Below, in pieces: positions 11,602 through 63,770 of a stretch of 64,000 nt of DNA; the first letter of the stretch is position 1, and every line of letters begins with the position of its first letter. Source of the DNA: a virus; IMG/VR virus record IMGVR_UViG_3300045988_159115, one strand, 5' to 3'. The notes under the pieces are model-generated. The model ran no database searches. It was given only the letters and a program-made list of their open reading frames with translations, and was not told where the DNA came from. A program made the translations under genes and the position numbers.

Positions 11602-11611
11602 ATATATTATA
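11602..11611 (+). promoter_or_regulatory. class A motif ATATATTATA (candidate early-type promoter)
   Basis: Exact 10-mer, just after terminator 11552-11597 and 67 nt upstream of the tubulin ATG 11679. Confidence 0.6.
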
Positions 11612-11630
11612 CTTAAGTACGAAAGCTGAA

Positions 11631-11642
11631 ACCATTAGTTAT
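11631..11642 (+). promoter_or_regulatory. class B variant (ACC-N6-TAT)
   Basis: CTGAAACCATTAGTTAT closely resembles CTGAAAACATTAGTGTA at 10528; 36 nt upstream of the tubulin ATG. Confidence 0.4.
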
Positions 11643-11678
11643 TCGTGCAAAAAAATATTTTTTTAGGAGGCATGATTT

Positions 11679-12824
11679 ATGCTAAGTATTTCTGTAGTGG
11701 GTATCGGTAACTGCGGTTCGCAAATCGCTGCGTTGGCTATGAAGAAGCTAAACGTACCTGTGATTGCGATCAACAGCAGTGAAAGAGATATCCAGACCCT
11801 GCCGGAAGACGTTCCGGTTTACTTGATGGGTGACGCCAAGGGCGCTGGCAAGCAGCGTATCATGGCAAAGCAGATGCTCAAGAAGTCCGTTATGGACATC
11901 CTTGAGAATCCGAAACTGAAGGACGTCTTCGCAAGTGACATCCTGTTTGTGGTGTCTTCTACTGGTGGCGGTACCGGTTCTGGTACTGCGATCCTGATGA
12001 CCAATATCATTCGTGAGGTCTACACGAAGGGTACTGTCGTCACGGTTGGCGTGCTTCCTACGCTCAAGGAAGCTCTGTCGACTCAGTTGAACAGCGTTGA
12101 GTATCTGAAGGAGCTGTATGGCACCATGACGGATACTACATATATGCTGTATGATAATGATCGTTGTTCGAAGAGTGCGATCGCCATGATGGATTCTGTG
12201 AACGAGCAGGTCGTCAACGATATGGATGTCATCCGCGGAACCTATCAGATTCCGACTCGTTACGCATCCATCGACGAGAGAGACATGCTCAACATCATCG
12301 GTACTCCTGGCCGTCTTGTTGTTGCTGGCGTTCGGGATATCGCAAAGCGTCGTGACGCAGATAACATCGACATCGAGGATGCTCTGATTGATGCTCTGCG
12401 TACCGCTCCGATTGCAGATCTCGAGAAGGATGGCGTGATTGCACGTACTGGTGTGATCAGTGCGCTGTCTTCTGATCTGAACGATCGGTTTGATACCCAT
12501 ATCCCGAAGGTTCTGAATGTCGTTGGTACTCCTGTCGAGGAGTTTGAGCATGTGGCGGTCAATACTGATCGTCATCTTCCGTCCAACGTCTTCATCGTGT
12601 GCTCTGGCATGAGCCAAGCAAACGATCGTCTTCGTAAGATCAATGATCGAATCGAAGAGATCAATTCTTTGCAGGAGAAGGCAAAGGCTGACGATTCTAT
12701 CATCTCCGAGATTGATGTTTCGAAGCTGAGCCAGAAGGTGAGCCACACCCGTACTCCTGCAAAGGAAAAGGAAGCAGGTACAGATTTCGACCTGAAGAGC
12801 ATCTTCTCGAAGTTCGGCATCTAA
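11679..12824 (+). CDS. tubulin/FtsZ-superfamily GTPase (phage PhuZ/TubZ-like)
   Basis: VVGIGNCGSQIA (G-box 1), tubulin signature SSTGGGTGSGTA, T7-loop-like YDNDR. AGGAGG SD 8 nt before the ATG. Confidence 0.9.
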   Translation: MLSISVVGIGNCGSQIAALAMKKLNVPVIAINSSERDIQTLPEDVPVYLMGDAKGAGKQRIMAKQMLKKSVMDILENPKLKDVFASDILFVVSSTGGGTGSGTAILMTNIIREVYTKGTVVTVGVLPTLKEALSTQLNSVEYLKELYGTMTDTTYMLYDNDRCSKSAIAMMDSVNEQVVNDMDVIRGTYQIPTRYASIDERDMLNIIGTPGRLVVAGVRDIAKRRDADNIDIEDALIDALRTAPIADLEKDGVIARTGVISALSSDLNDRFDTHIPKVLNVVGTPVEEFEHVAVNTDRHLPSNVFIVCSGMSQANDRLRKINDRIEEINSLQEKAKADDSIISEIDVSKLSQKVSHTRTPAKEKEAGTDFDLKSIFSKFGI

Positions 12825-12836
12825 GTAAGGTTTCAT

Positions 12837-12900
12837 AAGAGGGGAATAGTATTTTACCGAGGTGGTTACACTAAGGTAATTTTGGCTATCCCCTCTTTAT
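12837..12900 (+). terminator. large-loop hairpin after the tubulin gene (terminator-like; encloses class B motif)
   Basis: AGAGGGGA(A)TAG / CTATCCCCTCT arms, about 36-nt loop, followed by TTTAT. Confidence 0.4.
12868..12879 (+). promoter_or_regulatory. class B motif ACA-N6-TAA
   Basis: ACACTAAGGTAA, identical to the 12-mer at 63821; 52 nt upstream of ATG 12932. It lies in the loop of hairpin 12837-12900. Confidence 0.55.
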
Positions 12901-12931
12901 GGGATAAATAAATTCAAGGAGGACTCATTAT

Positions 12932-13918
12932 ATGAGTAAGGACAACAACAAAAAACGGGAATTTAAGATTCCTAAGGAAGTCAAGAATTTCCTCATGCCG
13001 TTCAAGAAGTGGCGTAAGGACAATGACTTTTACGAGAGCAAGAAGGATGCTCGTAAGGCCTATTACACCGAGAAGCTCGAGTGGATGGGCGAGAGTGTGA
13101 TTCCTCTGCTCGTCAGTTATGGCTATCGTCAGGAAGTGATTGAGATCAAGAACGACCTCTACGAAGGGTTGTCTGATCCCGAGTTCGTGAAGGCCTGCAC
13201 AAAGGCTGTCAAGAAGGGCGATGGTTTTGAGAACCAGTCCCTGTATGCAGTCCTGGTCCAGGACATGGCTGAGGCGCTGGCAAAGCAGGCTCGCGTTGAG
13301 TCTGCTAAGACTGGTGAGACCATCGTTACGGATATCGACGATATGGTTGAGCTGTCCAAGCTGGTTCTGGCAAAGAAGATCAAGAAGGCAAAGAAGGCCG
13401 GGATTGATGAAGCCACTGCATTCAGTGTGCTGAGCATCCTGCCGGATACTTCCATTCTGGATATCCGCAACGACAACCGCTGTAATAAGAAGTTCTACTT
13501 CTACAGAAAGCTTATCAATTGCCTGTATACTCTGGCAAAGGATAAGCCTCTGTGTGCACCGGTTGGTGAGATCATCGAATTCGTCTTCCGTAAGGGCGAC
13601 GACTTCATCCCCAGTTTCATCGTGTGTGCGATGCTGGAGCGTAAGGAGCGTTACAACAGCCTCAACAAGACTCAGCAGGAGGTCTATGACCAGCTGACTA
13701 CTTGGGCTTTTGGTAAGCTCGAGAGTTACGATAAGGAAACCATCACTGCCGCCCTGCGTCTGTATTACAACTGGCGCAAGGACGACGCAGCAAACAACCG
13801 TGATTCTCAGCGCCGATACTATGTGAGCAGCCTGCCGGAGAATGAATATCCGAAGACTGTCGCATGCATGAACAAGATCATCGCAAGCGGCGATGAGCAC
13901 ACCAAGGACTTTTTCTAA
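12932..13918 (+). CDS. basic, probably alpha-helical protein downstream of tubulin, function unknown
   Basis: Track ORF; AAGGAGG SD; G/C-ending codon usage like the tubulin gene; class B motif at 12868. Confidence 0.75.
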   Translation: MSKDNNKKREFKIPKEVKNFLMPFKKWRKDNDFYESKKDARKAYYTEKLEWMGESVIPLLVSYGYRQEVIEIKNDLYEGLSDPEFVKACTKAVKKGDGFENQSLYAVLVQDMAEALAKQARVESAKTGETIVTDIDDMVELSKLVLAKKIKKAKKAGIDEATAFSVLSILPDTSILDIRNDNRCNKKFYFYRKLINCLYTLAKDKPLCAPVGEIIEFVFRKGDDFIPSFIVCAMLERKERYNSLNKTQQEVYDQLTTWAFGKLESYDKETITAALRLYYNWRKDDAANNRDSQRRYYVSSLPENEYPKTVACMNKIIASGDEHTKDFF

Positions 13919-13936
13919 TAAAGGAGAGCAAGAATA

Positions 13937-14521: not shown

Positions 14522-14614
14522 TCTACAGAGAAAGATAAGCTTAGCTACCTTATCTCAAAACGTGCTACAATCGCGTCAAAATTGAAGCACTGTGTTTAAC
14601 TGTAGTTAAATGAG

Positions 14615-14666
14615 AAGAATCCAATGTGATTTGTGTAATAGCAAATTCACATTGGATTCTTTTTTT
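14615..14666 (+). terminator. intrinsic terminator
   Basis: GAATCCAATGTGA / TCACATTGGATTC stem followed by TTTTTTT. Confidence 0.85.
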
Positions 14667-14745
14667 CGTGCTAGGAAGTCTATGATCCGAAAGGGATTTA
14701 ATCTCATAAATTGGGAAACTTTCCATTAATCCGTATAGGACTACG

Positions 14746-14774
14746 CATGAAAAACGAAAGGACGATATGAATGG
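14746..14774 (+). promoter_or_regulatory. conserved 29-nt leader with 7-codon uORF (MKNERTI) abutting the topoisomerase B-subunit start
   Basis: CATGAAAAACGAAAGGACGATATGAATGG. uORF ATG 14747 to TGA 14768-14770, then the main ATG at 14771. 28 of 29 nt are identical to 17372-17400. Confidence 0.6.
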
Positions 14775-17194: not shown

Positions 17195-17256
17195 CAGAAA
17201 AGTAATCCGCGATGGGTTATTGGTTTCCATAATTCAAACTCTCTTTAAAATATAAA

Positions 17257-17305
17257 ATAAGACGTAGACAGTGAGCTCGTGTAACTACACTGTCTACGTC
17301 TTATT
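17257..17305 (+). terminator. intrinsic terminator (A-tract/T-tract flanked, potentially bidirectional)
   Basis: AATAAGACGTAGACAGTG / CACTGTCTACGTCTTATT. Confidence 0.8.
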
Positions 17306-17371
17306 CCTTGTATTTCCATTGTCTGGAAAACGTATATATAGGAGTGATCCTTATGTAAACTGAGATTACAT

Positions 17372-17400
17372 CATGAAAAACGAAAGGACGACATGAATGG
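17372..17400 (+). promoter_or_regulatory. conserved 29-nt leader with 7-codon uORF (MKNERTT) abutting the topoisomerase A-subunit start
   Basis: CATGAAAAACGAAAGGACGACATGAATGG. uORF ATG 17373 to TGA 17394-17396, then the main ATG at 17397. Confidence 0.6.
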
Positions 17401-23998: not shown

Positions 23999-24043
23999 TT
24001 TTAGGGCATATACTTACCATCCGTATATTCTATTAGTATAATG

Positions 24044-24053
24044 ATATATTATA
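24044..24053 (+). promoter_or_regulatory. class A motif ATATATTATA
   Basis: Exact 10-mer in the context TAATGATATATTATAC; 86 nt upstream of ATG 24140. Confidence 0.6.
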
Positions 24054-24139
24054 CAGGTAGAAGATAGAGGAAGAAGAGTACTCTGTCAAATCAATTTGTA
24101 TGATCCTCGAGAATAAGAGGGTCGGAAGGAGATCATATT

Positions 24140-24745
24140 ATGAAAACCAACAACATCATCAAGAACGCAAGCAAGGCCATCCGTAACGGCAGCAAGAACT
24201 ACATCGGTTACTGCAACAAGTGCGCCGCACAGCGTGCTGTCGCTCGCAAGAACGATGCCAAGTACGACAGCAAGGTCTTCGCTAAGGCCCTTGTTGGAGG
24301 CGCAGCGATCTATTTGACCGTTGCTGCTGTCGATTTTGCAATCGACGTTGCACCCATGATCGTTAATAAGATCAAGGGTGATGCGAAGAAGGCGCTCGAC
24401 GAGAAGAACTCGGTGACTGTCCAGACCATGGAACGAGAGATGGCTATGCGCAAGGCCACCCTCGAGAACACCGGGTACACTGACTACTACGTCAGCGGAG
24501 ACACCATGGCGATGAACCACGGTGAGCTCACTGGTGGCGTGATCACCAAGGCTTGCCTCGATGCTAAGCCTGGCACGCTGCCCAGAATCATCATTGGCAA
24601 CTCTGTCAGTGATGAGCATGTGGACAAGATCTACACCGTCGATGGTCAGCCGAAGTGCTGCCCTTACGGTGAAGACCCTGCAACCACCAAGCATGAGAAG
24701 GATGTCACCTTCCCGATGTTCGGTGACCACAAGGTTGAAGAGTAA
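24140..24745 (+). CDS. probably abundant membrane-associated protein, function unknown
   Basis: Track ORF; GGAAGGAG SD; G/C-ending codons; one hydrophobic segment, LVGGAAIYLTVAAVDFAIDVAPMIV. Class A motif at 24044. Confidence 0.75.
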   Translation: MKTNNIIKNASKAIRNGSKNYIGYCNKCAAQRAVARKNDAKYDSKVFAKALVGGAAIYLTVAAVDFAIDVAPMIVNKIKGDAKKALDEKNSVTVQTMEREMAMRKATLENTGYTDYYVSGDTMAMNHGELTGGVITKACLDAKPGTLPRIIIGNSVSDEHVDKIYTVDGQPKCCPYGEDPATTKHEKDVTFPMFGDHKVEE

Positions 24746-25508: not shown

Positions 25509-26404
25509 AACCAAGACATGTATACCAGCTTGCTGCTGGTCTAATGGAATCGTATGCTACCTCAGCTCTTCAATTCCTTAATCCTTTGACTGGAATTGAT
25601 GACTTAAGGAAATCCGGTGTTCGATATGAAGTATCGGATTTTATTGGCCGGATTATTCCAAAGGGAGCAAATAAGATTTCTCGAAGTAAAGGGAATCCGA
25701 TCAAAGGAGTTTATCTTGGCACCGTTTCTGGAGCAATACCGATTTTTTTGTTTATGGATATGGATACGGCATATCTTGTGAAGACGACCGTAAACGGAGA
25801 AGTTGAATCGGCTGAACCGTATAAAGGATATAATCCTTTTCGTGGGATTGACCCATCGGATTCTTTTGTGGCAGATTCTACTTTTACCACGATATCAAAT
25901 TCTCTTTATCAGATTCCATTGACAAAAGCGATGTATGAATTTATAATTCATGGTGGTAGATATATTTCCCTCTCAAATCCGAATGGTTGGAATTATATTA
26001 CTCCGACTATTTGCAAACGAAAGAATCTGGAAGATCCATCCGTTTTATCTTATAAACTTCTCGGAAATCCACTTCCAGATTACACGTATCCGTTTGTGGA
26101 ATATGTGAATGGAAAGTTTGCACGAATTACTCAGATCGTGGATGACAGGAAGGTATCTATTGAAGAGCATGATATGAAGTCAGATTCTGAGCTCCGTTGG
26201 ATTACGAATTTCAAATGGCCAAATATGGACGCTTGTATCAGTACTCTCTTTCGATATGAATTGATTCGAGATTATCAGCCTATTTCCGATCTTACGGTAT
26301 CAAATTGTGATAATACAGAAATCTTCAATGTTTGTGCTCGGAATAAGCATCAGAAGACTTTTATCTATGAGCGTTCCACTGGACATATGACTTTGATTTT
26401 ATAA
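25505..26404 (+). CDS. hypothetical protein
   Basis: Track ORF; ATGA start/stop overlap with the previous gene. Confidence 0.7.
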   Translation: MKPRHVYQLAAGLMESYATSALQFLNPLTGIDDLRKSGVRYEVSDFIGRIIPKGANKISRSKGNPIKGVYLGTVSGAIPIFLFMDMDTAYLVKTTVNGEVESAEPYKGYNPFRGIDPSDSFVADSTFTTISNSLYQIPLTKAMYEFIIHGGRYISLSNPNGWNYITPTICKRKNLEDPSVLSYKLLGNPLPDYTYPFVEYVNGKFARITQIVDDRKVSIEEHDMKSDSELRWITNFKWPNMDACISTLFRYELIRDYQPISDLTVSNCDNTEIFNVCARNKHQKTFIYERSTGHMTLIL

Positions 26405-26408
26405 TACG

Positions 26409-26465
26409 TATACCTCCTTTCTTTGATTATATATTATAAAGGTAATCAATAAGAAAGGAGGTATA
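26409..26465 (+). promoter_or_regulatory. 15-bp perfect inverted repeat whose right arm is the SD of gene 26470 (anti-SD hairpin)
   Basis: TATACCTCCTTTCTT (26409-26423) pairs with AAGAAAGGAGGTATA (26451-26465). The 27-nt loop contains class A motif 26429-26438. Confidence 0.6.
26429..26438 (+). promoter_or_regulatory. class A motif ATATATTATA
   Basis: Exact 10-mer (TGATTATATATTATAA); 31 nt upstream of ATG 26470. It lies in the loop of inverted repeat 26409-26465. Confidence 0.6.
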
Positions 26466-26469
26466 TATT

Positions 26470-26679
26470 ATGGCACGTACTAGCTATGTAAAAGGCGACA
26501 GCAACTATACATCACTAACATGTAAGTTGCTGTCGCCTGTTGCAGACTACGCTGAAGTCTCACGAGATGAACTGACGCGTAGTTTCACCAGCCAGATGTC
26601 TAGGTTTAATAGTAATGGCGTATTTGGTAAGTATTTAGCTACATCTCCAAATATGGACCAAACTATTAGCCTCGTCTAA
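26470..26679 (+). CDS. small hypothetical protein
   Basis: Track ORF; AAAGGAGG SD, which is one arm of a 15-bp inverted repeat. Class A motif at 26429. Confidence 0.6.
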   Translation: MARTSYVKGDSNYTSLTCKLLSPVADYAEVSRDELTRSFTSQMSRFNSNGVFGKYLATSPNMDQTISLV

Positions 26680-30189: not shown

Positions 30190-30594
30190 ATGGCAGATCA
30201 GTATTATGCAACGATCAGTGAGCTTATTCGATCAATTGATCACGAAGAGATCAGTTATCGAAATCTGCATACGACTTTCTGTATTCGTGAAAATGGTACA
30301 GATACAATCCAAGTTCCATATAAATCAATTATCCGTGAGTACATTGACCTTATGAATGAGGATGCTGTGAGTGTGAAGCTCCCTGATGATGAAGTCCGTA
30401 TTTATCAGTATAAGCCGAAGAAGCTTTCTCTTGATCTATATGGGACGACAGAACTTTGGGCTGGACTTCTTGAGCTCAATCACATGTATTCTATCTTGAA
30501 CTTCGATTGTCTGAAGCCTTTCCTCGTATTTAATCCGGGCACGGTAAGAAAGAAGATCAACGAGATTCTGATTGCTGAAGAAGTTATTAAGTGA
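30190..30594 (+). CDS. hypothetical protein
   Basis: Track ORF; 3 nt after the previous stop. Terminator 30598-30637 follows. Confidence 0.65.
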   Translation: MADQYYATISELIRSIDHEEISYRNLHTTFCIRENGTDTIQVPYKSIIREYIDLMNEDAVSVKLPDDEVRIYQYKPKKLSLDLYGTTELWAGLLELNHMYSILNFDCLKPFLVFNPGTVRKKINEILIAEEVIK

Positions 30595-30597
30595 ATT

Positions 30598-30637
30598 AAA
30601 GTACCAGACTATCAATTCTCAAGTAGTCTGGTACTTT
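30598..30637 (+). terminator. intrinsic terminator
   Basis: AAAGTACCAGACT / AGTCTGGTACTTT. Confidence 0.8.
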
Positions 30638-30642
30638 AATTT

Positions 30643-30652
30643 ATATATTATA
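30643..30652 (+). promoter_or_regulatory. class A motif ATATATTATA
   Basis: Exact 10-mer just after terminator 30598-30637; 33 nt upstream of the ligase ATG 30686. Confidence 0.6.
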
Positions 30653-30685
30653 TAATAGACGAAATATCAAGGAGGTAATAATCAA

Positions 30686-32818
30686 ATGGCATTAAACGTC
30701 AATTTCAATGACCTTTATCAGAGAATGGTTGATGGCGAAACTTCTGTTGCTGAAGCATCCAGATTCATGCAATCGCCTGAAGTTCATAAGCTCATCAATT
30801 CTCTGGTCTACAAAAAGTCCATTGATCAGATGGTTCCTTTCTACCCTGAGGAACTTCAAAATATTCAGGGTATTATCAACGTGGCGCAGTTCATCTATAA
30901 CGATTCTGGAATGGATACTGGACTTACCGATTCGGAATATGATGCACTTTATGAAGCAATGCTTCGTAATGGTGGAGACGATATCATCACGGTACCGATT
31001 CTTCCGAATGCAAATAATATTGCGCATCATAAGTACCCGTCTCTTCGTGGTACTCTGACGAAGACCTACTATCTTTCCACAGATGAGAAGCGCACAAATC
31101 CGTCTCGCCATTATCTGGATGAATGGATTCAGACGATGGAGAATAAGATCTATCAAGCAACCGGGAAGCAGATGTATCTCAATGATGAAGAGATCTATGT
31201 TTTCCCGAAGTTTGATGGAGTCTCCGGCATCTTTGAGATGAATGCTGACGGAACGATCGGCAGAGTTCTTACTCGTGGATTCACTGAGCGAAACGAGGCT
31301 CAGGATATCACACGTCATTTCCAAGGTCTTCCTATCCGTAAGTATCATGAAATCAATGGTGCTTATGGTTTGAAGACAGAGGTCATGATGTATGAATCCG
31401 ACCTTGCAAAGTTCAATGAGACGTATCATACGGATTACAAGAATACCCGATCCATCGTATCTGGTATTCTGAATAGTGAAGAATATGACCCGTATAAGGC
31501 ACAGTATCTTCACGTAGTTCCTCTTCGTGTTGGAGATCTGGATGGTAATCAGGAACTTGCACAGGAAGCTTTCAATCTGTACCCGTATCTTCGTTGCCGT
31601 CTGAAAGACCGTGAAGCAATCAGAAATTTCGCCTATTCTCATCGTTATATTCATGATGAACTTCGGTGTGATGGTGCAGTTATCTATATCATCAATCCCG
31701 AGATTCAGAAGATTCTTGGACGCGAGAATGATAAGAATAACTTCGAAGTGGCTTACAAGTTCACGGAAGAATCTGCTATGACGATTCTGGAAGACGTCTC
31801 TTTCAATATGGGTTCTTTTGGAAGACTAGCTCCGGTTGCAAAGGTGAAGCCGGTTAAGCTAAAGGGAAACACCATTGAGAAAGTTTCTCTTGGGTCTGTT
31901 GGTCGATTCCGTTCTTTGAAGCTTCATGAGGGTGACAAGGTTAAGATTCTTTACGACATCATTCCGTATCTTGCCTTCGATAAAGACTGCTCTCATAACT
32001 ATGATGGGAAACAGTTCGTCCTTCCTGCAACCTGTCCTGAGTGTGGAGAGATTCTGGAATTCAGTGACACTGGTGATGTTGCATCCTGTGTCAATCCGAA
32101 CTGTGCATGCAGACGGATTGGTAAGATCATTAATTATCTCAATAAGATGAGTATTGATGGTCTTTCTTACGGAGTTATCTCCAGACTCTATCATGAAGGC
32201 ATTGTGAAGAATGTCGTTGATCTCTATAAGCTTGACAAGCACAAGAAGGAGATTATCGGGATTGATGGCTTTGGTCCAAAGCTTGTGAATTCTTGGATTG
32301 ACGCAATCGAGGAAAAGTCTGCCGTCGAGGATTATATCTTCCTTGGGTCTCTTGGCATTGAGGGAGTATCTAAGAAGACTTTCTCGAAGATCATGAATGT
32401 CATGACTTTGGATGAGCTCTTGGATGTTTGTGAGAATAAGCTTCCTCACTCTCTCATCTCGATTCCTTCTATTCAGGCAAAGACAGCTGAGAAAATTATC
32501 GCAGGTGTCAATGCCAATATCAAGCTCATTGAGAAACTGGAGAAGTATCTGAATATCAAGTCAACGAAGGGTAGTGAAGATCGGTGCAAGTTTGCAGTCT
32601 GCTTTACTATGATCCGAGATAAGAGTTTGGAGAAATGGATCCTTGAGCATGACGGCAGGGTTGATGCAACCTTGACAAAAGCAACCACATTCCTTGTGGT
32701 CCCGTCTCTGGATACAACTTCCGATAAAGTTGAGAAAGCCAAGAAATACGGAGCTTATGTGATTCCGATTGACAAGGCAATCGAAACTTTCACGAGATAT
32801 ATTTCAAGCATTGAGTAA
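30686..32818 (+). CDS. ligA: NAD-dependent DNA ligase
   Basis: Adenylation motif FPKFDGVSG (KxDG), Zn finger CPECGEILEF..CVNPNC, an HhH-like region, and a C-terminal BRCT-like CKFAVCFTMIRDKSLEKWILEHDGRV. About 710 aa, typical LigA length. Confidence 0.88.
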   Translation: MALNVNFNDLYQRMVDGETSVAEASRFMQSPEVHKLINSLVYKKSIDQMVPFYPEELQNIQGIINVAQFIYNDSGMDTGLTDSEYDALYEAMLRNGGDDIITVPILPNANNIAHHKYPSLRGTLTKTYYLSTDEKRTNPSRHYLDEWIQTMENKIYQATGKQMYLNDEEIYVFPKFDGVSGIFEMNADGTIGRVLTRGFTERNEAQDITRHFQGLPIRKYHEINGAYGLKTEVMMYESDLAKFNETYHTDYKNTRSIVSGILNSEEYDPYKAQYLHVVPLRVGDLDGNQELAQEAFNLYPYLRCRLKDREAIRNFAYSHRYIHDELRCDGAVIYIINPEIQKILGRENDKNNFEVAYKFTEESAMTILEDVSFNMGSFGRLAPVAKVKPVKLKGNTIEKVSLGSVGRFRSLKLHEGDKVKILYDIIPYLAFDKDCSHNYDGKQFVLPATCPECGEILEFSDTGDVASCVNPNCACRRIGKIINYLNKMSIDGLSYGVISRLYHEGIVKNVVDLYKLDKHKKEIIGIDGFGPKLVNSWIDAIEEKSAVEDYIFLGSLGIEGVSKKTFSKIMNVMTLDELLDVCENKLPHSLISIPSIQAKTAEKIIAGVNANIKLIEKLEKYLNIKSTKGSEDRCKFAVCFTMIRDKSLEKWILEHDGRVDATLTKATTFLVVPSLDTTSDKVEKAKKYGAYVIPIDKAIETFTRYISSIE

Positions 32819-33636: not shown

Positions 33637-33657
33637 AACCAAACCATGATTTCACTT

Positions 33658-33667
33658 ATATATTATA
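33658..33667 (+). promoter_or_regulatory. class A motif ATATATTATA
   Basis: Exact 10-mer; 133 nt upstream of ATG 33801. The leader contains an imperfect hairpin at about 33683-33741. Confidence 0.55.
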
Positions 33668-33800
33668 TATAGGTGATGAAGATGAGCTTACTGCAATTTG
33701 TGTGTTAGAAATTCATTTTAGCATACACTTTGTAGTAAGCTCGTTTTATCATGAGAACGAACGTAAACCCAATGAGAAACTTTGAAAGGAAGTACCAACT

Positions 33801-34610: not shown

Positions 34611-36392
34611 ATGCTCAAATATATTGGAGAATACGTGTCCGACTTTGAGAAAGAACTTAATCGGCCTCTGATGACAAAAGAAGCTGATCTTCCTCTGGTC
34701 GAGTATATCAAGGATGTCTGGCGTTCTTTGGAGATCGTCAAGAACATCAAGATTCTGAGCTTCGAGTGGAATGACAACGAAGCGACGATCGACATCAATA
34801 ATCATATCTTCAAGCGCGAGAAAAAGAAGCGCAAGAAGGATCGCTATAACTACAAGTTCATCAATGATGATCGTTGTGGTTGCCTGACAGTATATGTCGA
34901 GATTACTGTCAAAGAAAATGATAGCCGGAATCCGGATGAACCGAAGATCCATAAGAAGATCATCAAGAAGCAGATGCTGATTCCTATTCAGGATGAGGAT
35001 GGGTTCTTCTATATCCGTGGCAAGCGCTATTATATGATTTATCAGCTCGTTGATAAATCTACATACACTTCGAATAACGCTGTTACTCTGAAGTCTCTGA
35101 TGCCTATCTGCGTGAAGCGCAATGGCATTAAGACAGACGAGATCGTTCGAAGTGAAAACACCGGTAAGGATGTAAACGGAATGCAGTATAACATTCCCGT
35201 TTATAACGTCTTCGTCTTCCGTAAGGAAATTCCCATCATGCTGTTCTATCTTGCAAACGGATGGGACTGGGCAATGTGCTATCTGGAAGTCGATAATGTC
35301 ATTCGTCTGGTGAAGAACCTCGATGATGCTAATTTCGAGAAGAATCTGTATTTCCAGATTTCCAGTCATTGCTTCATCGAGGCAAACAAGGAGATGTTCC
35401 TGAAGTACCCTTATATCCAGTCTGTGGTTGGTGGTCTTCTGACGATTTCCAATTCCAGAACTACGATGGATGATTTCCATGACCGTACGGTTTGGATCAA
35501 GGCGCTCTCAAACAACAACACCGTTGAGAAGGGTGAAGACATTCTGGTGTTCTTTAACCGTCTGATGGATGTTACCACTCGTAAGATTCTGAAGCTCAAC
35601 GATTACGAGAAGAATGACATCTATGCAATCCTTCGTTGGATGATGCAGAATTTCGGCACCCTCCGTATGAAGGATAACATGAGTCTTGAGAATAAGCGTC
35701 TTCGTTGCAATGAGTATATTGCATCGCTGCTGACTCTGGACTTCTCTTCTCGACTCAATTCTGTGATTACTCTTGGTAACAAGGCAACCATGGATAACTT
35801 CACAAACATGTTCCGCTTCACGGGTGAGATTCTGATCCAGAAGATGCATTCTTCTGGTATTCTCCGGTTCAATGATAATATGAATGATATGGACTTCTTC
35901 TCGAAGTTCAAGTATACTATCAAAGGACCTCATTCCATGGGCGGAAAGAATTCCAACAACATCTCGATTCGCTACCGTGGCTCTCATCCGAGCTTCCTTG
36001 GTAATATTGACCTTTTGGTTTGTGGTAACTCTGACCCTGGTACTTCCGGTGTCTTGAGTCCGTTTGGTAAAATCAAGGGCTTCTATTTCAACGATGAGAA
36101 TGAGACTGATGCGTTCCGGTTCGATTATGCAAAGGATTTGGAGCGTGTCCTCACGGAAGAGAACTTTGAGTATATCAAAATCAACTGTGCTACTAAGGAG
36201 GAGTATTATGCTCTTCTGAATAAGTTGGCAGACTTTAACGAGAATGCTATTAAGATCAATGGTACGTCTCGTGAAAAGTACGAAGTTGTTGTTGAGAAAG
36301 AAGACATGACATCTGGTTCTGATTCGGATGAGAAGGAAACTCAGGAAGAAGCTCCAGAGACTATTTCCGACACAACCGAAGATGATTCCTAA
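34611..36392 (+). CDS. multisubunit RNA polymerase beta subunit, N-terminal fragment
   Basis: GFFYIRGKRYYMIYQLVDKS (beta F.ING.ERV..SQL), LENKRLRCNEYIASLL (GNRR.R..GEL), RYRGSHPSFLGNIDLLVCGNSDPGTSGVLSPF (R.VH.SHYGR.CP.ETPEG.N.GL). The protein ends soon afterwards in an acidic tail. Confidence 0.85.
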   Translation: MLKYIGEYVSDFEKELNRPLMTKEADLPLVEYIKDVWRSLEIVKNIKILSFEWNDNEATIDINNHIFKREKKKRKKDRYNYKFINDDRCGCLTVYVEITVKENDSRNPDEPKIHKKIIKKQMLIPIQDEDGFFYIRGKRYYMIYQLVDKSTYTSNNAVTLKSLMPICVKRNGIKTDEIVRSENTGKDVNGMQYNIPVYNVFVFRKEIPIMLFYLANGWDWAMCYLEVDNVIRLVKNLDDANFEKNLYFQISSHCFIEANKEMFLKYPYIQSVVGGLLTISNSRTTMDDFHDRTVWIKALSNNNTVEKGEDILVFFNRLMDVTTRKILKLNDYEKNDIYAILRWMMQNFGTLRMKDNMSLENKRLRCNEYIASLLTLDFSSRLNSVITLGNKATMDNFTNMFRFTGEILIQKMHSSGILRFNDNMNDMDFFSKFKYTIKGPHSMGGKNSNNISIRYRGSHPSFLGNIDLLVCGNSDPGTSGVLSPFGKIKGFYFNDENETDAFRFDYAKDLERVLTEENFEYIKINCATKEEYYALLNKLADFNENAIKINGTSREKYEVVVEKEDMTSGSDSDEKETQEEAPETISDTTEDDS

Positions 36393-37927: not shown

Positions 37928-37929
37928 GT

Positions 37930-37971: not shown

Positions 37972-38160
37972 GTAAATATGGGACAAACCTTATAGTAATC
38001 CGGATGAGGAATTTCGTTACTATCGGTGCCAATGGTAGTAGGTTGCTCATTCGCATTTATGGTTTGATATTATCTATATCGACTACGGTTAACAGGAGCT
38101 AGTTTGGATTACCTGACTAGCTCCCGTTAACTATCCTTATAATAGAAAGGAGATGTGGAT

Positions 38161-38256
38161 GTGATTCGAATTCTTTTTGAAGATTTGGTTTACTATGTCT
38201 GCTATGCATTTTACTTTATTCGATTTATGGTTTTTGGTATAGATGATGATTTATGA
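38161..38256 (+). CDS. 31-aa aromatic/hydrophobic peptide with acidic tail (speculative)
   Basis: Not in the track. AAAGGAG SD 8 nt before GTG 38161. (M)IRILFEDLVYYVCYAFYFIRFMVFGIDDDL. Preceded by hairpin 38079-38124 and a TATAAT box, and followed by bidirectional terminator 38259-38304. Confidence 0.3.
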   Translation: MIRILFEDLVYYVCYAFYFIRFMVFGIDDDL

Positions 38257-38258
38257 TT

Positions 38259-38304
38259 AAAAGGTAGCTACTCTATATTGGATTACAGAGTAGCTACCTA
38301 ATTT
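38259..38304. terminator. bidirectional hairpin at the 3' end of the Rad50-like gene
   Basis: AGGTAGCTACTCT / AGAGTAGCTACCT, flanked by AAAA and TTTT. Confidence 0.7.
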
Positions 38305-40910: not shown

Positions 40911-40936
40911 AATTTCACCTTTTCTATAGTGGTTTC

Positions 40937-40948
40937 ATATTGAATGGT
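40937..40948 (-). promoter_or_regulatory. class B variant (ACC-N6-TAT)
   Basis: Reverse complement CTAAAAACCATTCAATAT; 26 nt upstream of the Rad50-like ATG 40910. Confidence 0.4.
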
Positions 40949-41310
40949 TTTTAGGTGAATAACATGTTAGTAACTCCTTGACTGGATTGAACTACGAAGA
41001 TGTTCTTAATCAGTATGGATTTAATAGCTATAGATTTTTCTTTGGAACGAGTAATGTGGTTACGTCAGAAATATCTTTGATATGAAAACGGGACTTTTCA
41101 TCTTCATTGTACCTCCTAAGAATATAGTGGAAAACGTTTGCGCTCTGGTGATGTATCATAACAATTTTCGTGTATATGAACTTCCGGCGGATATGAGCAT
41201 TCTTCCTTCTTGACCTCATGGTCAAAAGCTATATAAAGTCCATCCTGTACTCCGTTGCCGATATCTCACGGATGGAAGGTGGAAGAGATATTGGGCGGTT
41301 TATATATACA

Positions 41311-41358
41311 AAGAAGACGCTATTATGTAATTGGAAAGGTTACATAATAGCGTCTTCT
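41311..41358 (-). terminator. hairpin terminator of the RNAP operon (minus strand)
   Basis: GAAGACGCTATTATGTAA / TTACATAATAGCGTCTTC. Confidence 0.7.
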
Positions 41359-41365
41359 GCTGTCG

Positions 41366-42683: not shown

Positions 42684-43904
42684 TTACAAGAGCATAGTAT
42701 CCGGATCAATCTGATTCGATTTGATGTTAGCTGTATGGAATTTCTTCATGCCCATCTTCAGAAGCTTTGTGGAAATCTGAGGGCAACCGAGGCCAATATT
42801 CAGGTTATCCAGCTTGTAGTTCAGCTCTCCTGCACAGATATTGCAGATATGCTTTCCCTTGCAATACATGGGGCTACGCAGTTTGATAGGCTTACCGACA
42901 TACTTACCGATAATCTCAGGAGTCAAGCAGACATACTTACCATTTTCTACGATGTACCGATACTCAAAGTCACGAGTATCTTTCGGAGTCATGATGTAGG
43001 AAATGGTCTTTTTTGTCCCGCAATCACTGCCATGCTCATCAAGAACTTCGCCCTGCATTGCTGCCAGAAGCTGTTTTGTCAGGTAGCCAGACTCAGCAGT
43101 ACCGACTGCTTTCGGGTATGCACCAGAAACGACGGATGTGCCGAAAGAAGGAATGTCTTGCTTTGTGATACCATCCATGAAAGACGATCTGACGATTTCA
43201 TATTCGCCAGTAATATTATTCATGGTAGCACCCTTATACAACATCATATTCTTGTAGTTACCGAAGTTACCACGAGCACCAGAATTATAAAGGTCCATAC
43301 CGGGGTCATCTGCAAGAAGTTTCTTTGCCTCACTGGTGAGTTCTTTCTCGATTTTCTCGGAAGTAACGATGTCACCCTCATTGAGCTTGTCATCATATTT
43401 CTTGAAAAGCTCTTCTTTTCGCTTAGCAATCTCAGGAGGGCATGCAATTGTCTTCTCACTGAAAGAAGTAGTGATAACAGAGTTCAGCTGCATTCCAAGA
43501 GTATCACGGTAATCGTAATAGTCATAGAAATCATTGATGCTGATCTTATCATCAATCAGAGCTTTTGCAAGTTGACTTTCGATAGATTCATATTTACCCT
43601 GAGTAACAGGCTCATTCACATACCCGAGAACACTCTGGAATCCAAAGCGTTCGATGAGGTACTTATTGAAGATGAACCTACCGACGGTTGTCTTCGTTTT
43701 CTCTTTTACGAAATACTCAGAAGGCTCCAATGTCATTTCGTCCCAAGTACTGAACTTAGATTTCTTAACTCCACTGAAAGCGTTCTGAGCATCTGTAGTA
43801 TCTCCGAAGAGATAGACGAGCTTTGTGAAAGTAAGATCATCCGGTTTTAATTCCAGAAGTTCTTTCTTTTCTGCTTCTGTGATTTTTCGAGCAGGTCTAG
43901 GCAT
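42684..43904 (-). CDS. multisubunit RNA polymerase beta-prime subunit fragment (regions E-G: bridge helix to first trigger-loop helix)
   Basis: TTVGRFIFNKYL; LYNSGARGNFGNYKNMMLYKG (SGARG...GMRG); bridge helix GTAESGYLTKQLLAAMQ (TA.SGYLTRRLVD); LRSPMYCKGKHICNICAG; GLGCPQISTKLLKMGMKKFHTA (AAQSIGEP.TQ.T..TFH.GG). Confidence 0.85.
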   Translation of the reverse strand: MPRPARKITEAEKKELLELKPDDLTFTKLVYLFGDTTDAQNAFSGVKKSKFSTWDEMTLEPSEYFVKEKTKTTVGRFIFNKYLIERFGFQSVLGYVNEPVTQGKYESIESQLAKALIDDKISINDFYDYYDYRDTLGMQLNSVITTSFSEKTIACPPEIAKRKEELFKKYDDKLNEGDIVTSEKIEKELTSEAKKLLADDPGMDLYNSGARGNFGNYKNMMLYKGATMNNITGEYEIVRSSFMDGITKQDIPSFGTSVVSGAYPKAVGTAESGYLTKQLLAAMQGEVLDEHGSDCGTKKTISYIMTPKDTRDFEYRYIVENGKYVCLTPEIIGKYVGKPIKLRSPMYCKGKHICNICAGELNYKLDNLNIGLGCPQISTKLLKMGMKKFHTANIKSNQIDPDTMLL

Positions 43905-43906: not shown

Positions 43907-44635
43907 TTAACCCTCCTCTTTCAGAGTCTTATTAATCATCAGGCCACGAGTGACCAGATCGGATTTAAGACCCATACCAAGCAGGTATACATCAACTGTA
44001 TTCAGAGTAGTCTTATTCTCAGGAGAAGATTCCATATCTTCCAGAGAGACATAACCCTTCGTATTGATTGCAGTATACATCTGCTGCTTCATAACCATAT
44101 CATCGGCACGAGGGCCATTGAGTTCCTTCAACGTATCCTTCATATTCATGCTGATGAGCATGGAATTTTCAAGGTCAGATTCACGGCCATTCTTATCAGC
44201 GCCACTAACCTGACCAGTAAGAGAAGAACGTGCATCTGCTGTGGTAGACAGACCGTTCTTCTTTGCAACCGTTTGCTGTGTACGTTTCACATGGCAGTAT
44301 CCAACAGGCACTGCTTCTTTGGAAACGATGATATTATTCTTATCCATTGTATAGTGAGGGAATGCAATTCTCTCAAACAGAGGAACGTTAAGTACCTTTG
44401 CTGCATCTTCAATATCAGGAACTTTCAGATCAATCTGATAGTCACAGACATTCAGAATCAGATACTCGTTCGGGTTTGCAAAAAATTCTTTGAAGAATTT
44501 ATCAAACTGAGCATCCGTCATGGTATCAAAGATGGATTTGTAGTGCTTCGTATTTGCGCCGGTCTTATCAAGAGCATTGAATGTCTTATAGATAAGATCT
44601 TCCATCTTCTTTCGTTTTTGCGGAGTTAACGCCAT
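43907..44635 (-). CDS. multisubunit RNA polymerase beta subunit, C-terminal fragment
   Basis: Track ORF 43907-44686; AAAGGAG SD plus ATG 44635. VGYCHVKRTQQTVAKKNGLSTTADARSSLTGQ (GY.Y.LKL.H.V.DK.HARS.GP..TQQP) and GRESDLENSMLISMNMKDTLKELNGPRADD (GGQR.GEME.WAL.AYGA..L.E.L..KSDD). Confidence 0.7.
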   Translation of the reverse strand: MALTPQKRKKMEDLIYKTFNALDKTGANTKHYKSIFDTMTDAQFDKFFKEFFANPNEYLILNVCDYQIDLKVPDIEDAAKVLNVPLFERIAFPHYTMDKNNIIVSKEAVPVGYCHVKRTQQTVAKKNGLSTTADARSSLTGQVSGADKNGRESDLENSMLISMNMKDTLKELNGPRADDMVMKQQMYTAINTKGYVSLEDMESSPENKTTLNTVDVYLLGMGLKSDLVTRGLMINKTLKEEG

Positions 44636-44679
44636 AACGATGTATCTCCTTTCGTTTAATGTGTAATAGACTAGGCTGC

Positions 44680-44691
44680 TTACCATTCTGT
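44680..44691 (-). promoter_or_regulatory. class B motif ACA-N6-TAA
   Basis: Reverse complement CTGAAAACAGAATGGTAA; 44 nt upstream of the RNAP beta-C ATG 44635. It lies in the loop of hairpin 44665-44724. Confidence 0.6.
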
Positions 44692-44732
44692 TTTCAGGAT
44701 GAAATTAAGCTGCCTAGTCTTATTTTATAATG

Positions 44733-44742
44733 ATATATTATA
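44733..44742 (+). promoter_or_regulatory. class A motif ATATATTATA
   Basis: Exact 10-mer in GTCTTATTTTATAATGATATATTATA, an extended context shared with site 50424. Upstream of ATG 44842. Confidence 0.6.
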
Positions 44743-44841
44743 TAGGTATAGAAAGTCCATAAATATAAAAAGAAAGGTTGTAAAAATACGTGGCTTATCT
44801 GAAAATACATGAAAAATAAAAGAATAGGAGTTGTAGAGACA

Positions 44842-45696: not shown

Positions 45697-46040
45697 TGCA
45701 GTATTCAGGATTATGGCTGTCAAAAGAAATGGCAGAATCTTTCATCGGATATATCCATGATGGATCGGCAGTACAAACTACTCTTCCGAATGAATATATC
45801 CATATCTTTGCTCGGATCACTGAGGGAGGCAAACTTTATTTCCGCCTTGATCCGAATGATGCCAAAAGCGGCGAATTCTATTTAACGAATGCCGCTGGCA
45901 ATGTTTCATACGCTCATGCAACCATCCAAAAGATGTATGAGGTTATCAGTGACATGTTCTACCTCACCCATGATCAGAAATACACGAGTTTGAAGACTAA
46001 GGTACGGCAGGCTGCCGAAATGAACTCGTGGTATAGATGA
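45696..46040 (+). CDS. hypothetical protein
   Basis: Track ORF; TAATG overlap with the previous gene. Confidence 0.6.
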   Translation: MQYSGLWLSKEMAESFIGYIHDGSAVQTTLPNEYIHIFARITEGGKLYFRLDPNDAKSGEFYLTNAAGNVSYAHATIQKMYEVISDMFYLTHDQKYTSLKTKVRQAAEMNSWYR

Positions 46041-46049
46041 TATATTATA
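46040..46049 (+). promoter_or_regulatory. class A motif ATATATTATA
   Basis: Exact 10-mer; 29 nt upstream of small ORF 46079 and the operon 46201-46884. Confidence 0.6.
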
Positions 46050-46078
46050 TATATATATGAAAGGAGTGAGAGCGAAAT

Positions 46079-50362: not shown

Positions 50363-50373
50363 CCTTTGGCGTA

Positions 50374-50414
50374 AATAAGACCAGATACTATTGATTTCTA
50401 GTATCTGGTCTTAT
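50374..50414. terminator. 18-bp perfect hairpin in a divergent promoter region (insulator/terminator-like)
   Basis: AAATAAGACCAGATACTA / TAGTATCTGGTCTTATTT. It sits between class B site 50351 (minus strand) and class A site 50424 (plus strand). Confidence 0.5.
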
Positions 50415-50423
50415 TTTATAATG

Positions 50424-50433
50424 ATATATTATA
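50424..50433 (+). promoter_or_regulatory. class A motif ATATATTATA
   Basis: Exact 10-mer in GTCTTATTTTATAATGATATATTATAC; 80 nt upstream of ATG 50514. Confidence 0.6.
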
Positions 50434-50513
50434 CACATAAGAAGCCATAGAGGAATGGAAGCAATAACCCATCGCAGTTAAATTTTTCATAATTGAAAGG
50501 AATTCAAAATATT

Positions 50514-50711: not shown

Positions 50712-50722
50712 TTAGTATTAGG

Positions 50723-50765
50723 AGAAAGTTGGTTCTTATATGGCTTCTTACAACTTTCTTTTTTT
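50723..50765 (+). terminator. intrinsic terminator
   Basis: AGAAAGTTG / CAACTTTCT stem followed by TTTTTT. Confidence 0.65.
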
Positions 50766-50769
50766 AATG

Positions 50770-50779
50770 ATATATTATA
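50770..50779 (+). promoter_or_regulatory. class A motif ATATATTATA
   Basis: Exact 10-mer just after terminator 50723-50765; 69 nt upstream of ATG 50849. Confidence 0.6.
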
Positions 50780-50848
50780 AATATGATAGGCAGGAAGGAT
50801 GTGAAAAATTTATATGCCGAAATCGTTCAAATTGAAAGGAGTATAAAA

Positions 50849-54783: not shown

Positions 54784-54812
54784 TTCTGTGACGATGAAAG
54801 GAGTAATATATT

Positions 54813-55457
54813 ATGGGTAACGTAAAGACCTATCCTCGTACACCGGATGTGAATCTTTCAAGTCATTTTGCACTGCATGAATTTGCATGTAAGGATAACG
54901 GCGTGAGCAAGACTGTCCTTGTTGATGATGAACTGGTTCAGCGTCTTGAGACTCTTCGGAGTCGTCTTGGCGGAAAAGCCATCAATATCAATTCTGGTTA
55001 TCGTTCTCCCGCTCACGATAAGGCAGTTGGCGGTTCTGGTAGGGGTTTCCATACGAGAGGCATGGCAGCTGATATCTGGGTTCAGGGCCTTACTTGTGTT
55101 CAGCTCGGCATGCTTGCAAAGGAAGTTGGCTTCCGTGGTATTGGTATGTATCATCGTAAGCCTTCTGAGCAGGTTGTCCATGTTGACACACGCCCGTCTC
55201 CGTGTAAGTGGCTTTGCCGTTCTGGTGCAAAGTACAATTACATCCAGAACTTCATGCCTACGGTATCTCCTACTTCTCAGGGTGATACAAACAAGACTGC
55301 AACCATTATGCTTCAGTCTTGCCTTGGCATCGCTGAAGATGGGAAGTACGGTCCTGCAACAGTTGCTGCTGTTAAGAAGTTCCAGGCTGCGCATGGTCTG
55401 ACTGCTGATGGTATCTGCGGTGTTATGACTTGGAAAGAAATCGGTAAGATTCGTTAA
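54813..55457 (+). CDS. endolysin: Peptidase_M15 (M15A/YcbK-like) catalytic domain plus C-terminal peptidoglycan-binding (PG_binding_1-like) domain
   Basis: SGYRSPAHD, GFHTRGMAADI and VVHVD match the Zn-ligand pattern H..D..H of M15 peptidases. C-terminal DGKYGPATVAAVKKFQAAHGLTADGICGVMTW. Confidence 0.85.
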   Translation: MGNVKTYPRTPDVNLSSHFALHEFACKDNGVSKTVLVDDELVQRLETLRSRLGGKAININSGYRSPAHDKAVGGSGRGFHTRGMAADIWVQGLTCVQLGMLAKEVGFRGIGMYHRKPSEQVVHVDTRPSPCKWLCRSGAKYNYIQNFMPTVSPTSQGDTNKTATIMLQSCLGIAEDGKYGPATVAAVKKFQAAHGLTADGICGVMTWKEIGKIR

Positions 55458-56810: not shown

Positions 56811-56866
56811 AATAATTCCTCCAAGTTTTTATATTCATGAGCTTCTTTTCATCTACTCACTATAAT

Positions 56867-56876
56867 TATAATATAT
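56867..56876 (-). promoter_or_regulatory. class A motif ATATATTATA (minus strand)
   Basis: The reverse complement reads TGATTATATATTATAATTATAGTG; 56 nt upstream of minus-strand ATG 56810. Confidence 0.6.
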
Positions 56877-56959
56877 AATCAAAAACAATTAGGTAGAAAT
56901 GTTTTCCTTCTTCCTTTCAAATTTTGGTCGGTCGAACACGCGCGGGCAAAATCATATGA

Positions 56960-62970: not shown

Positions 62971-62974
62971 AACT

Positions 62975-63027
62975 AAAAAATAAGAACCAAGGTTTCTCGT
63001 ACTAGAGTGAACCTTGGTTCTTATTTT
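62975..63027 (+). terminator. intrinsic terminator
   Basis: AAAAAATAAGAACCAAGGTT / AACCTTGGTTCTTATTTT. Confidence 0.85.
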
Positions 63028-63029
63028 AC

Positions 63030-63068
63030 AAAAAAGAAGGGATACCTAGCTGGTTGCTAGGTCCCTTG
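63030..63068 (-). terminator. intrinsic terminator, bulged GGACCTAAC family (minus strand)
   Basis: Reverse complement AAGGGACCTAGC-AACCA-GCTAGG(TA)TCCCTT followed by CTTTTTT. Confidence 0.8.
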
Positions 63069-63078
63069 ATCCCATGGA

Positions 63079-63684
63079 TTATTTCATAGGATCGAAGTCA
63101 CGAACCAAGAATGGTACGTAGATGTTGTCTATATTCATGAGGAGGAAATAGCAAATGCCGTCCTCGCTCATGAAATGGTGAATTTTCATGTATTCGGTGT
63201 GATCGCCATAGACATCCTGGACAGCCTTGTACTCATTAGCATACTGGATGCCGATGAGTTGGTCGCCATTGGTGGACGTAGCGAACAGATCCGCGCTCGA
63301 AATCCTCAAGTAGTTCTTTCCGGTGGAAAGCACAGACATGAAATCATCGAACGATTCCGGAGAGAACCCGGTATAGTGCATGAGATCGTTGATGACGTCG
63401 GGGGTGAAGATAGTTTCCAGATTGAGGCCGCGAACGAACTGTGTGAGCACAACGTTCTTATTGGGTTTGACTGTCTTGTAGATCGGGCTCTTTACGATGA
63501 TGTCACCATTCAGGAGGGAAGAGCATTGCTGATCAGCCGTATTAGCGTAGAGCAACCGATCGTATATCTCAGAATACCCTTCGTAATATTTAACAGACCC
63601 ATTGACTACCGTTGCTTTGATGATGTGAAATGGATTGTACTGTTCGGTGCGGCGCAAGGCGCTCTTGCTGATTTCATATCCCAT
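63079..63684 (-). CDS. hypothetical protein
   Basis: Track ORF; GGAGAAGGAAAA SD. Class A motif at 63761-63770. Terminator 63030-63068. Confidence 0.65.
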   Translation of the reverse strand: MGYEISKSALRRTEQYNPFHIIKATVVNGSVKYYEGYSEIYDRLLYANTADQQCSSLLNGDIIVKSPIYKTVKPNKNVVLTQFVRGLNLETIFTPDVINDLMHYTGFSPESFDDFMSVLSTGKNYLRISSADLFATSTNGDQLIGIQYANEYKAVQDVYGDHTEYMKIHHFMSEDGICYFLLMNIDNIYVPFLVRDFDPMK

Positions 63685-63760
63685 TCTGTTTTCCTTCTCC
63701 TAGTATACACTAGGCCAAAATGAATATAAGTAAACCGATTGCTTACTTCATATTCACTAT

Positions 63761-63770
63761 TATAATATAT
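63761..63770 (-). promoter_or_regulatory. class A motif ATATATTATA (minus strand)
   Basis: The reverse complement reads TAATTATATATTATAATAGTG; 76 nt upstream of minus-strand ATG 63684. Confidence 0.6.

Follow-up and report, generated by a model that had tools for sequence, protein, structure and literature searches.

Genes of the window and distribution of the 10-mer

The window analyzed in this work, a stretch of 64,000 nucleotides (nt) from the virus record IMGVR_UViG_3300045988_159115 of IMG/VR, contains repeated copies of the 10-mer ATATATTATA, which a first-pass annotation had proposed as a promoter element. The gene map of the window, which combines open reading frames (ORFs), ribosome-binding sites and a codon-usage score, has 70 genes and is 91% coding, and nearly all of these genes are preceded by a Bacillus-type AGGAGG site. 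Encoded proteins include a tubulin, gyrase B, gyrase A, an NAD-dependent DNA ligase and an SbcC/SMC-like ATPase, as well as a DNA polymerase, a helicase, a virion protein and a member of the split RNA polymerase (RNAP) beta family of jumbo phages (g43). The best match of g43 is g264 of Bacillus phage AR9 (AR9/PBS1), with 37.6% identity and E = 2e-69, and the next matches are proteins of BpSp, Listeria phage LPJP1, Staphylococcus jumbo phages and phiR1-37. Comparison of all 70 window proteins with the AR9 genome by tblastn assigned g44 and g37 as further orthologues of RNAP subunits (Table 1); g37 matches AR9 positions 83395-84747 (E = 1e-54) and also phrog_2943, annotated as 'polymerase'. A megablast search with 20 kb against deposited phages gave no match, and the close relatives of the window are three IMG/VR contigs of ~255-259 kb from metagenome 3300045988, none of them identical to it. 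On these matches the window is assigned to a distant AR9-like jumbo phage, an uncultured Firmicutes phage of 259 kb which has no close relative among deposited phages.

Exactly 11 exact copies of ATATATTATA were found in the window, with the coordinates and strands given in the first-pass annotation (sites are named here by the lowest coordinate of the 10-mer). The expected number is 0.29, as the mean of 100 dinucleotide shuffles, none of which reached 11, and Markov models of the intergenic sequence only, trained on intergenic DNA of 34% G+C with the sites included, predict 0.14-0.51 copies. According to the gene map, all 11 sites are intergenic, although site 46040 overlaps a stop codon by 1 nt, and no copy lies inside a gene in the 58 kb of coding DNA of the window. 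Each site faces a downstream gene, as had been claimed, the co-directional start being 29-138 nt away in all 11 cases. The eight sites located between tandem genes all show the correct orientation (P = 0.004), and none of the seven convergent gaps holds a site. Frequent intragenic or misoriented copies, which the first-pass annotation had named as a warning sign, do not occur in the window.

The motif behaves in an all-or-none manner. One-mismatch variants of ATATATTATA in the window are self-overlaps, intragenic or overlapping start codons, and the 8-mer TATATTAT occurs 14 times, 11 of them within the full 10-mer. Furthermore, when 7-mers were counted without bias in 42 upstream regions, pieces of the 10-mer came right behind the ribosome-binding site.

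Two plus-strand occurrences of TATATTAT are fused to a start codon, at 26464-26472 (…GGAGGTATATATTATG, g27) and at 54807-54815 (…GGAGTAATATATTATG, g61). In both of them it fills the distance from the ribosome-binding site to the ATG and has no promoter role. Some long intergenic gaps (202-455 nt) are free of the 10-mer, such as 14522-14770, 17195-17396, 37928-38303 and 40911-41365, and the gap that precedes gyrase B and those next to the SbcC-like gene belong to this group; such gaps may contain promoters of another kind, small RNAs or small genes absent from the map.

The conserved block and its counterpart in AR9

Alignment of the 11 sites shows that the conserved block is longer than the 10 nt initially reported, and that it reads T-rich, R, A, T, G/T, ATATATTATA, N4, T, purine. 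Relative to the first base of the 10-mer, the sequence is T-rich from -7 to -5, followed by a purine at -4, A at -3 (8/11), T at -2 in all sites and G or T at -1. Downstream of the 10-mer there are four variable bases, T at position 15 in eight of the 11 sites, and a purine in every site (five G and six A) at position 16, which is the equivalent of +1 in AR9. No conserved column appears in this alignment upstream of -11. The TGAT or TGATT reported in front of the 10-mer at seven sites is a mixture of five TG-ATATATTATA and two TGATT-ATATATTATA, and not one uniform element; the 26-nt context common to sites 44733 and 50424 was correct.

In AR9, 41 early start sites were mapped by differential RNA sequencing (dRNA-seq) and primer extension, with AAATATATATTAT-(6N)-G+1 as consensus (Lavysh et al. 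2017, PMC5312081). Early transcription of this phage is insensitive to chloramphenicol and takes place in the absence of new protein synthesis, and it was attributed to an injected virion RNAP (vRNAP) (PMC5312081). In addition, AR9 yields progeny in rifampin, unlike phages that depend on the host RNAP. Alignment of 34 annotated AR9 early promoters gave AAAT-ATATATTAT-W-N4-(T)-G, with ATATATTAT in 28 of 34 promoters and the full ATATATTATA in 17 of them. The block in the window has in common with these promoters the 9-nt core ATATATTAT, the spacing to a start purine usually located after T, the lack of a -35 element and the intergenic, gene-facing position. Both phages show a gene of the non-virion RNAP (nvRNAP) and many small orphans among the genes served, a partner late class of promoters, and homologous split subunits of vRNAP and nvRNAP. 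Furthermore, AR9 g105 lies downstream of an annotated early promoter that is upstream of g104, and its orthologue g37 lies behind site 33658. The comparison with published early promoters of AR9-like phages, which the first-pass annotation had suggested, therefore ended in a shared core and a shared start spacing.

These results point to the 11 sites as early promoters read by the vRNAP of an AR9-like jumbo phage, a reading to which we give a probability of about 0.85. It is supported by homology and comparative sequence analysis, and the start site, the timing and the reading enzyme are predicted by homology to AR9. The proposal of a distinct early class, transcribed by a phage polymerase and not through host sigma-A, is thus favored by the match to the AR9 consensus and by the RNAP orthologues.

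The second motif of the window, ACA-N6-TAA, has 25 copies; 21 lie between genes, and 18 of these 21 point towards a gene. In sequence it corresponds to the late promoter class of AR9, AACA-(6N)-TA/G (PMC5312081), and it is considered here as a putative late-type motif. For recognition by the AR9 nvRNAP, the late promoter must contain uracil (PMC7598289). Genes behind it include g44/g43 (vRNAP), g9 (virion protein) and g22 (prohead protease), and it is also found before the DNA polymerase, gyrase A, helicase and SbcC genes. No gene is common to the strict ACA-N6-TAA set and to the 11 genes behind the 10-mer, in agreement with the almost disjoint sets described previously. A relaxed late pattern gives two nominal overlaps with the early set, but this pattern has a frequency of 2.6 per kb of coding DNA by chance. 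The gene g37, which encodes the N-terminal part of the nvRNAP beta subunit, is the second gene behind early site 33658, within the operon g36-g40. The suggestion of two temporal classes read by two polymerases gains support from this arrangement, with the nvRNAP gene g37 behind the early motif and the vRNAP genes g44/g43 behind the late-type motif, as in AR9.

The exact 10-mer was also found in intergenic position in relatives whose vRNAP beta C-terminal protein is 80, 78, 67, 43, and ~38% identical to g43. They show 2-7 copies per 21 kb, against 0.1-1 expected, and almost all copies have T-R at positions 15-16. In the related contigs L005 and L006, of ~80% identity, the motif precedes the orthologue of g45, whose protein is only 39% identical, and in the gap between g44 and g45 the island AT(G/T)ATATATTATA(A/T)A(G/T)GTA is the sole part of these contigs that aligns with the window. 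Across three near-identical sister contigs, the 255 positions compared in the interval -7 to +10 are all the same, and the flanks differ at 12-18% of positions, a range that is partly inflated by indels.

In contig L007 (IMGVR_UViG_3300032007_000141), whose vRNAP beta C-terminal protein is the 43% identical one, there are seven exact 10-mers in 21 kb versus ~1 expected; the upstream flank differs (…GGT or …ATT) and the N4-T-G spacing is kept, so that the core stays the same across deep branches and it is the flanks that drift. A scan of the collection with AATG plus the 10-mer gave, among the matches listed, mostly single chance matches, and several per contig were found only in the same metagenome.

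The same kind of element is present in other jumbo phages. In Staphylococcus phage MarsHill, the TATATTAT core lies upstream of 29 genes, was described as 'nearly identical to AR9' and was attributed to the viral RNAP. This phage belongs to the AR9-like clade and its vRNAP beta C-terminal protein is ~35% identical to g43; however, its motif was obtained from MEME only, no late motif was recovered, and its host and base composition are different. The claim of a second and distinct promoter class is supported, but the kind of element was known before, its core having already been reported for AR9 and MarsHill. According to a review, an AT-rich early motif of ~10 nt, centered near -10, is common to all jumbo phages that encode an RNAP (PMC7598289). 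Phages phiKZ and 201phi2-1, nucleus-forming jumbo phages of Pseudomonas, resemble the window in an AT-rich, highly conserved element ~10 bp upstream of the start, an injected multisubunit vRNAP (predicted for the window), and the location of the early motif before hypothetical early genes and some nvRNAP subunit genes. They differ from it in the sequence of the motif and in extra conservation at ~-20 and -30, whereas the window shows none upstream of ~-23, and their RNAP subunits are much more distant. There are also differences from AR9 itself: position 10 of the motif is always A in the window and A, T or C in AR9, the 11 copies are all exact and the AR9 promoters also include variants such as AAATTTATATTAT, and the genomes have 41 and 28% G+C, respectively, with an RNAP subunit only ~37% identical.

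Several observations weigh against reading by an AR9-like vRNAP. The window shows no more than two vRNAP subunit genes. Upstream of the core it has (A)T(G/T), within R-A-T-K, where AR9 shows AAAT, and T is invariant at a position that is A in AR9. The +1 base is A at six of the 11 sites, against a near-invariant G in AR9. DNA polymerase and gyrase A have a late-type motif and gyrase B has no 10-mer, whereas the gyrase B and DNA polymerase genes of AR9 are annotated with an early promoter. Relatives of ~30% G+C (L009-L013, L018-L022) show the 10-mer at chance frequency, and were not counted as support. Finally, the motif contains TATATT and TATTAT, each a 5/6 match to the sigma-A -10 hexamer, and the invariant T at -2 with G at -1 in five of the 11 sites forms the TGn of an extended -10, so some activity of the host RNAP is possible. 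The missing AAAT was counted as lineage-specific because flanks differ among phages of this group, and it argues for a variant of the AR9 promoter rather than an identical one.

The last of these points leads to the explanation that the host RNAP uses the sites immediately after infection, as happens in many ordinary phages, and that they are strong sigma-A promoters which lack a -35 and have an extended -10 (TGnTATATT or TATTAT). Purines are found at a suitable distance for a sigma-A start (positions 14 and 16), site 50770 passes a two-hexamer sigma-70 scan, and the authors of the AR9 study could not fully exclude host RNAP transcription of a few phage genes. Nevertheless, the best TTGACA match at 16-18 nt spacing has a mean of 2.3-2.5 out of 6 at the sites versus 2.54 at random intergenic positions, so the claim that there is no conserved -35 element was right. 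The extended -10 position has TG in only five of the 11 sites, with T invariant and G or T as second base. The sites share with the extended -10 promoters of Bacillus (TGnTATAAT) the AT-rich -10-like hexamers and a purine start at a compatible distance, but differ from them in the absence of a -35 and in a block of 10-12 invariant nt; the TG of five sites can be read in either direction. Ten invariant positions are more than a single hexamer explains, no one-mismatch variant is usable, and host promoter families vary far more than this 10-mer. The same core drives chloramphenicol-independent early transcription in AR9, whose growth in rifampin also speaks against the host enzyme, and it is conserved between phages that infect Bacillus and phages that infect Staphylococcus. 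Furthermore, sigma-70-type two-hexamer sites are depleted: positions 4001-64000 of the window, scanned in three parts of 20 kb, contain 33, 35, and 43 sites, against 45.8, 54.2, and 50.5 in dinucleotide shuffles, respectively, which is consistent with avoidance of host-type promoters. On the alignment of the sites, the absent -35 and this depletion, the sigma-A extended -10 was rejected as principal explanation, and we consider it improbable.

Two sigma-A-like sequences were observed on the plus strand. A perfect 12/12 consensus (TTGACA, 17 nt, TATAAT) lies at 25919-25947, inside the coding sequence of g26, and a similar pair (TTACCA, 17 nt, TATAAT) at 24014-24042 ends 2 nt before the 10-mer of site 24044, a gap which might contain tandem host-type and phage-type promoters.

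An exact site of 10-12 nt is also compatible with a sequence-specific DNA-binding protein, and the motif could be the target of a phage sigma-like factor, or of a regulator acting on an activator or repressor operator, that gates another polymerase. The nvRNAP of AR9 uses a dedicated specificity subunit, gp226, and the AR9 paper leaves open the need for additional virion or host proteins in promoter recognition by the vRNAP (PMC5312081). However, early transcription of AR9 occurs in the absence of new protein synthesis, so this factor would need to enter the particle together with the polymerase, and a packaged specificity factor is functionally the same as the vRNAP model, a refinement rather than an alternative. 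In addition, a purine start at a fixed spacing and a strict orientation are features of a core promoter more than of an operator. We regard a regulator site as very improbable.

Hairpins at the sites and genes served

Table 1. Putative early promoters, late-type motif and RNAP genes of the window. Early promoters extend from 4 nt before the 10-mer to the predicted +1.
Feature	Coordinates	Strand	10-mer	Predicted +1	Gene served or assignment	Flank
Early promoter	11598..11617	+	11602-11611	G 11617	before tubulin gene g11 (11679-12824)	terminator-like hairpin ~11550-11593, then TTTTTTGTTT
Early promoter	24040..24059	+	24044-24053	A 24059	before orphan g23 (24140-24745)	divergent gap
Early promoter	26425..26444	+	26429-26438	A 26444	before small gene g27 (26470-26679)	
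Early promoter	30639..30658	+	30643-30652	G 30658	before NAD-dependent DNA ligase g33 (30686-32818)	strong hairpin directly upstream, ~30593-30642
Early promoter	33654..33673	+	33658-33667	G 33673	heads operon g36-g40	
Early promoter	44729..44748	+	44733-44742	A 44748	before orphan g45	divergent from vRNAP operon; upstream hairpin ~44673-44715
Early promoter	46036..46055	+	46040-46049	A 46055	before g47/g48	first base of 10-mer is last base of g46 stop codon; hairpin ~45983-46030
Early promoter	50420..50439	+	50424-50433	A 50439	before g54	divergent gap; strong hairpin ~50373-50416
Early promoter	50766..50785	+	50770-50779	G 50785	before small-gene cluster g55-g58	hairpin and T-run ~50720-50762
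Early promoter	56861..56880	-	56867-56876	A 56861	before g63-g62	
Early promoter	63755..63774	-	63761-63770	G 63755	before g69 (63079-63684)	
Late-type motif AACAGAATGGTAA	44680-44692	-			heads vRNAP operon g44-g43(-g42)	44-45 nt upstream of g44
g37	34611-36392	+			orthologue of AR9 g105, N-terminal part of nvRNAP beta subunit	
g43	42684-43904	-			orthologue of AR9 g264, vRNAP beta C-terminal subunit	
g44	43907-44635	-			orthologue of RNAP domain of AR9 g078, vRNAP subunit	

A terminator scan with a loop limit of 8 nt misses hairpins close to the promoters, and the flanks were folded directly instead. The upstream sequence folds at -15 kcal/mol or below at five of the 11 sites, in comparison with 14% of random 60-mers, and the other six sites have no strong hairpin. 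At sites 11602, 30643, 50424, and 50770 the stem is followed by a T-rich tail. The idea that several sites follow a terminator hairpin directly, and would restart transcription, is therefore valid for about half of them and does not extend to the remainder.

Hairpins precede early promoters even between divergent genes (44733 and 50424), where no co-directional gene ends. L005 and L006 show a hairpin of different sequence at the same place, upstream of the motif located at about 8796 and 8793, respectively; in this comparison with the window, the structure of the promoter-upstream hairpin is conserved and its sequence is not. The opposite-strand late-type promoter, at 44681-44692, sits within the 44673-44715 hairpin.

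With about half of the sites adjoining a hairpin, and AR9-like genomes being rich in homing endonucleases, the 10-mer could also be a repeat unrelated to initiation, such as part of a terminator module, a target of homing endonucleases or recombination, or a replication or packaging signal. However, six sites lack a strong hairpin, and all sites face a gene, with none in a convergent gap, where pure terminators are expected. Moreover, the core is identical to that of mapped transcription start regions of AR9, and the motif is conserved before rapidly diverging genes. A non-promoter repeat was rejected on the orientation and position of the sites, and we judge it extremely improbable.

The virion RNAP of coliphage N4 is a single-subunit enzyme that recognizes a short hairpin which itself forms the promoter. 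The window resembles N4 in having early promoters of a presumably injected virion polymerase, and hairpins near several sites. A promoter of the N4 type was nevertheless discarded, as the hairpins are found upstream of the motif, differ in sequence from site to site and are strong at only 5-6 of the 11 sites.

Site 26429 shows a particular arrangement. A perfect 15-bp inverted repeat, 26409-26423 / 26451-26465 (TATACCTCCTTTCTT / AAGAAAGGAGGTATA), encloses the promoter and its predicted start at 26444. The RNA of 26409-26465 folds with -29 kcal/mol (z = -7), and the Shine-Dalgarno sequence of g27 is inside the 3' arm. With the promoter in the loop and the ribosome-binding site of g27 in the 3' arm, translation would be possible only from RNA that begins at the promoter: transcripts reading through from g26 would hide the ribosome-binding site, whereas promoter-started RNA, which lacks the 5' arm, would leave it free. 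This arrangement, the hairpins between divergent genes and the hairpin of different sequence in L005 and L006 would fit a further reading, in which the vRNAP promoter of this lineage belongs to a composite module of hairpin and promoter that has a function of its own; we hold this to be unlikely.

The genes behind the 10-mer comprise the tubulin, DNA ligase and nvRNAP subunit genes, together with many orphans that belong to no Pfam or PHROG family. Ten early-served proteins compared with Pfam and PHROGs gave essentially no family; a match to LRR_4 scored 22.8 bits versus a cutoff of 27, and a match to Pallilysin was likewise below threshold. Orphans of this kind are typical of early genes. In the list of served genes given by the first-pass annotation, the tubulin, the NAD-dependent ligase and the clusters of small unknown ORFs agree with the present map, but the genes described as similar to leucine-rich repeats (LRR) come down to that single sub-threshold Pfam match.

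The tubulin/FtsZ-family gene g11 (Pfam Tubulin, 5.8e-15) has no AR9 homologue, and its sole match among deposited phages is in Bacillus phage G, with 26% identity. Within the AR9-like clade it is unusual to find a tubulin gene served by a vRNAP early promoter.

Proposed order of transcription and its meaning

In the mechanism that we propose, an AR9-like multisubunit vRNAP would be packaged in the particle, injected with the DNA, and would read the 11 sites. This enzyme would recognize the AT-rich (A)T(G/T)ATATATTATA around -10, spanning about -19 to -6, and the RNA would start at the purine 6 nt past ATATATTAT, usually with T before it, with no need of a -35 or of a host sigma factor. The early promoters would turn on orphan 'takeover' genes, the tubulin, the DNA ligase and at least one nvRNAP subunit. 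The nvRNAP would then read the ACA-N6-TAA class, which covers structural, replication and vRNAP subunit genes. Where a hairpin follows a co-directional gene, it probably ends incoming transcripts, so that the early unit starts afresh.

The kind of element is already known, and what is new is a sequence-based map in which early and late transcription units are told apart for a branch that is uncultured, has 41% G+C and encodes tubulin. In this map, tubulin, DNA ligase, an nvRNAP subunit and ~20 orphans are marked as probable immediate-early genes. The composite module, if true, would add insulation and translation that depends on the promoter of origin to the AR9 scheme in this branch, whose 12-nt specificity looks stricter than that of AR9. 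The core ATATATTAT-N6-purine has stayed fixed despite a polymerase subunit of ~37% identity and a shift in G+C from 28 to 41%, and this fixed core is a useful constraint on how virion polymerases without sigma factor may recognize DNA.

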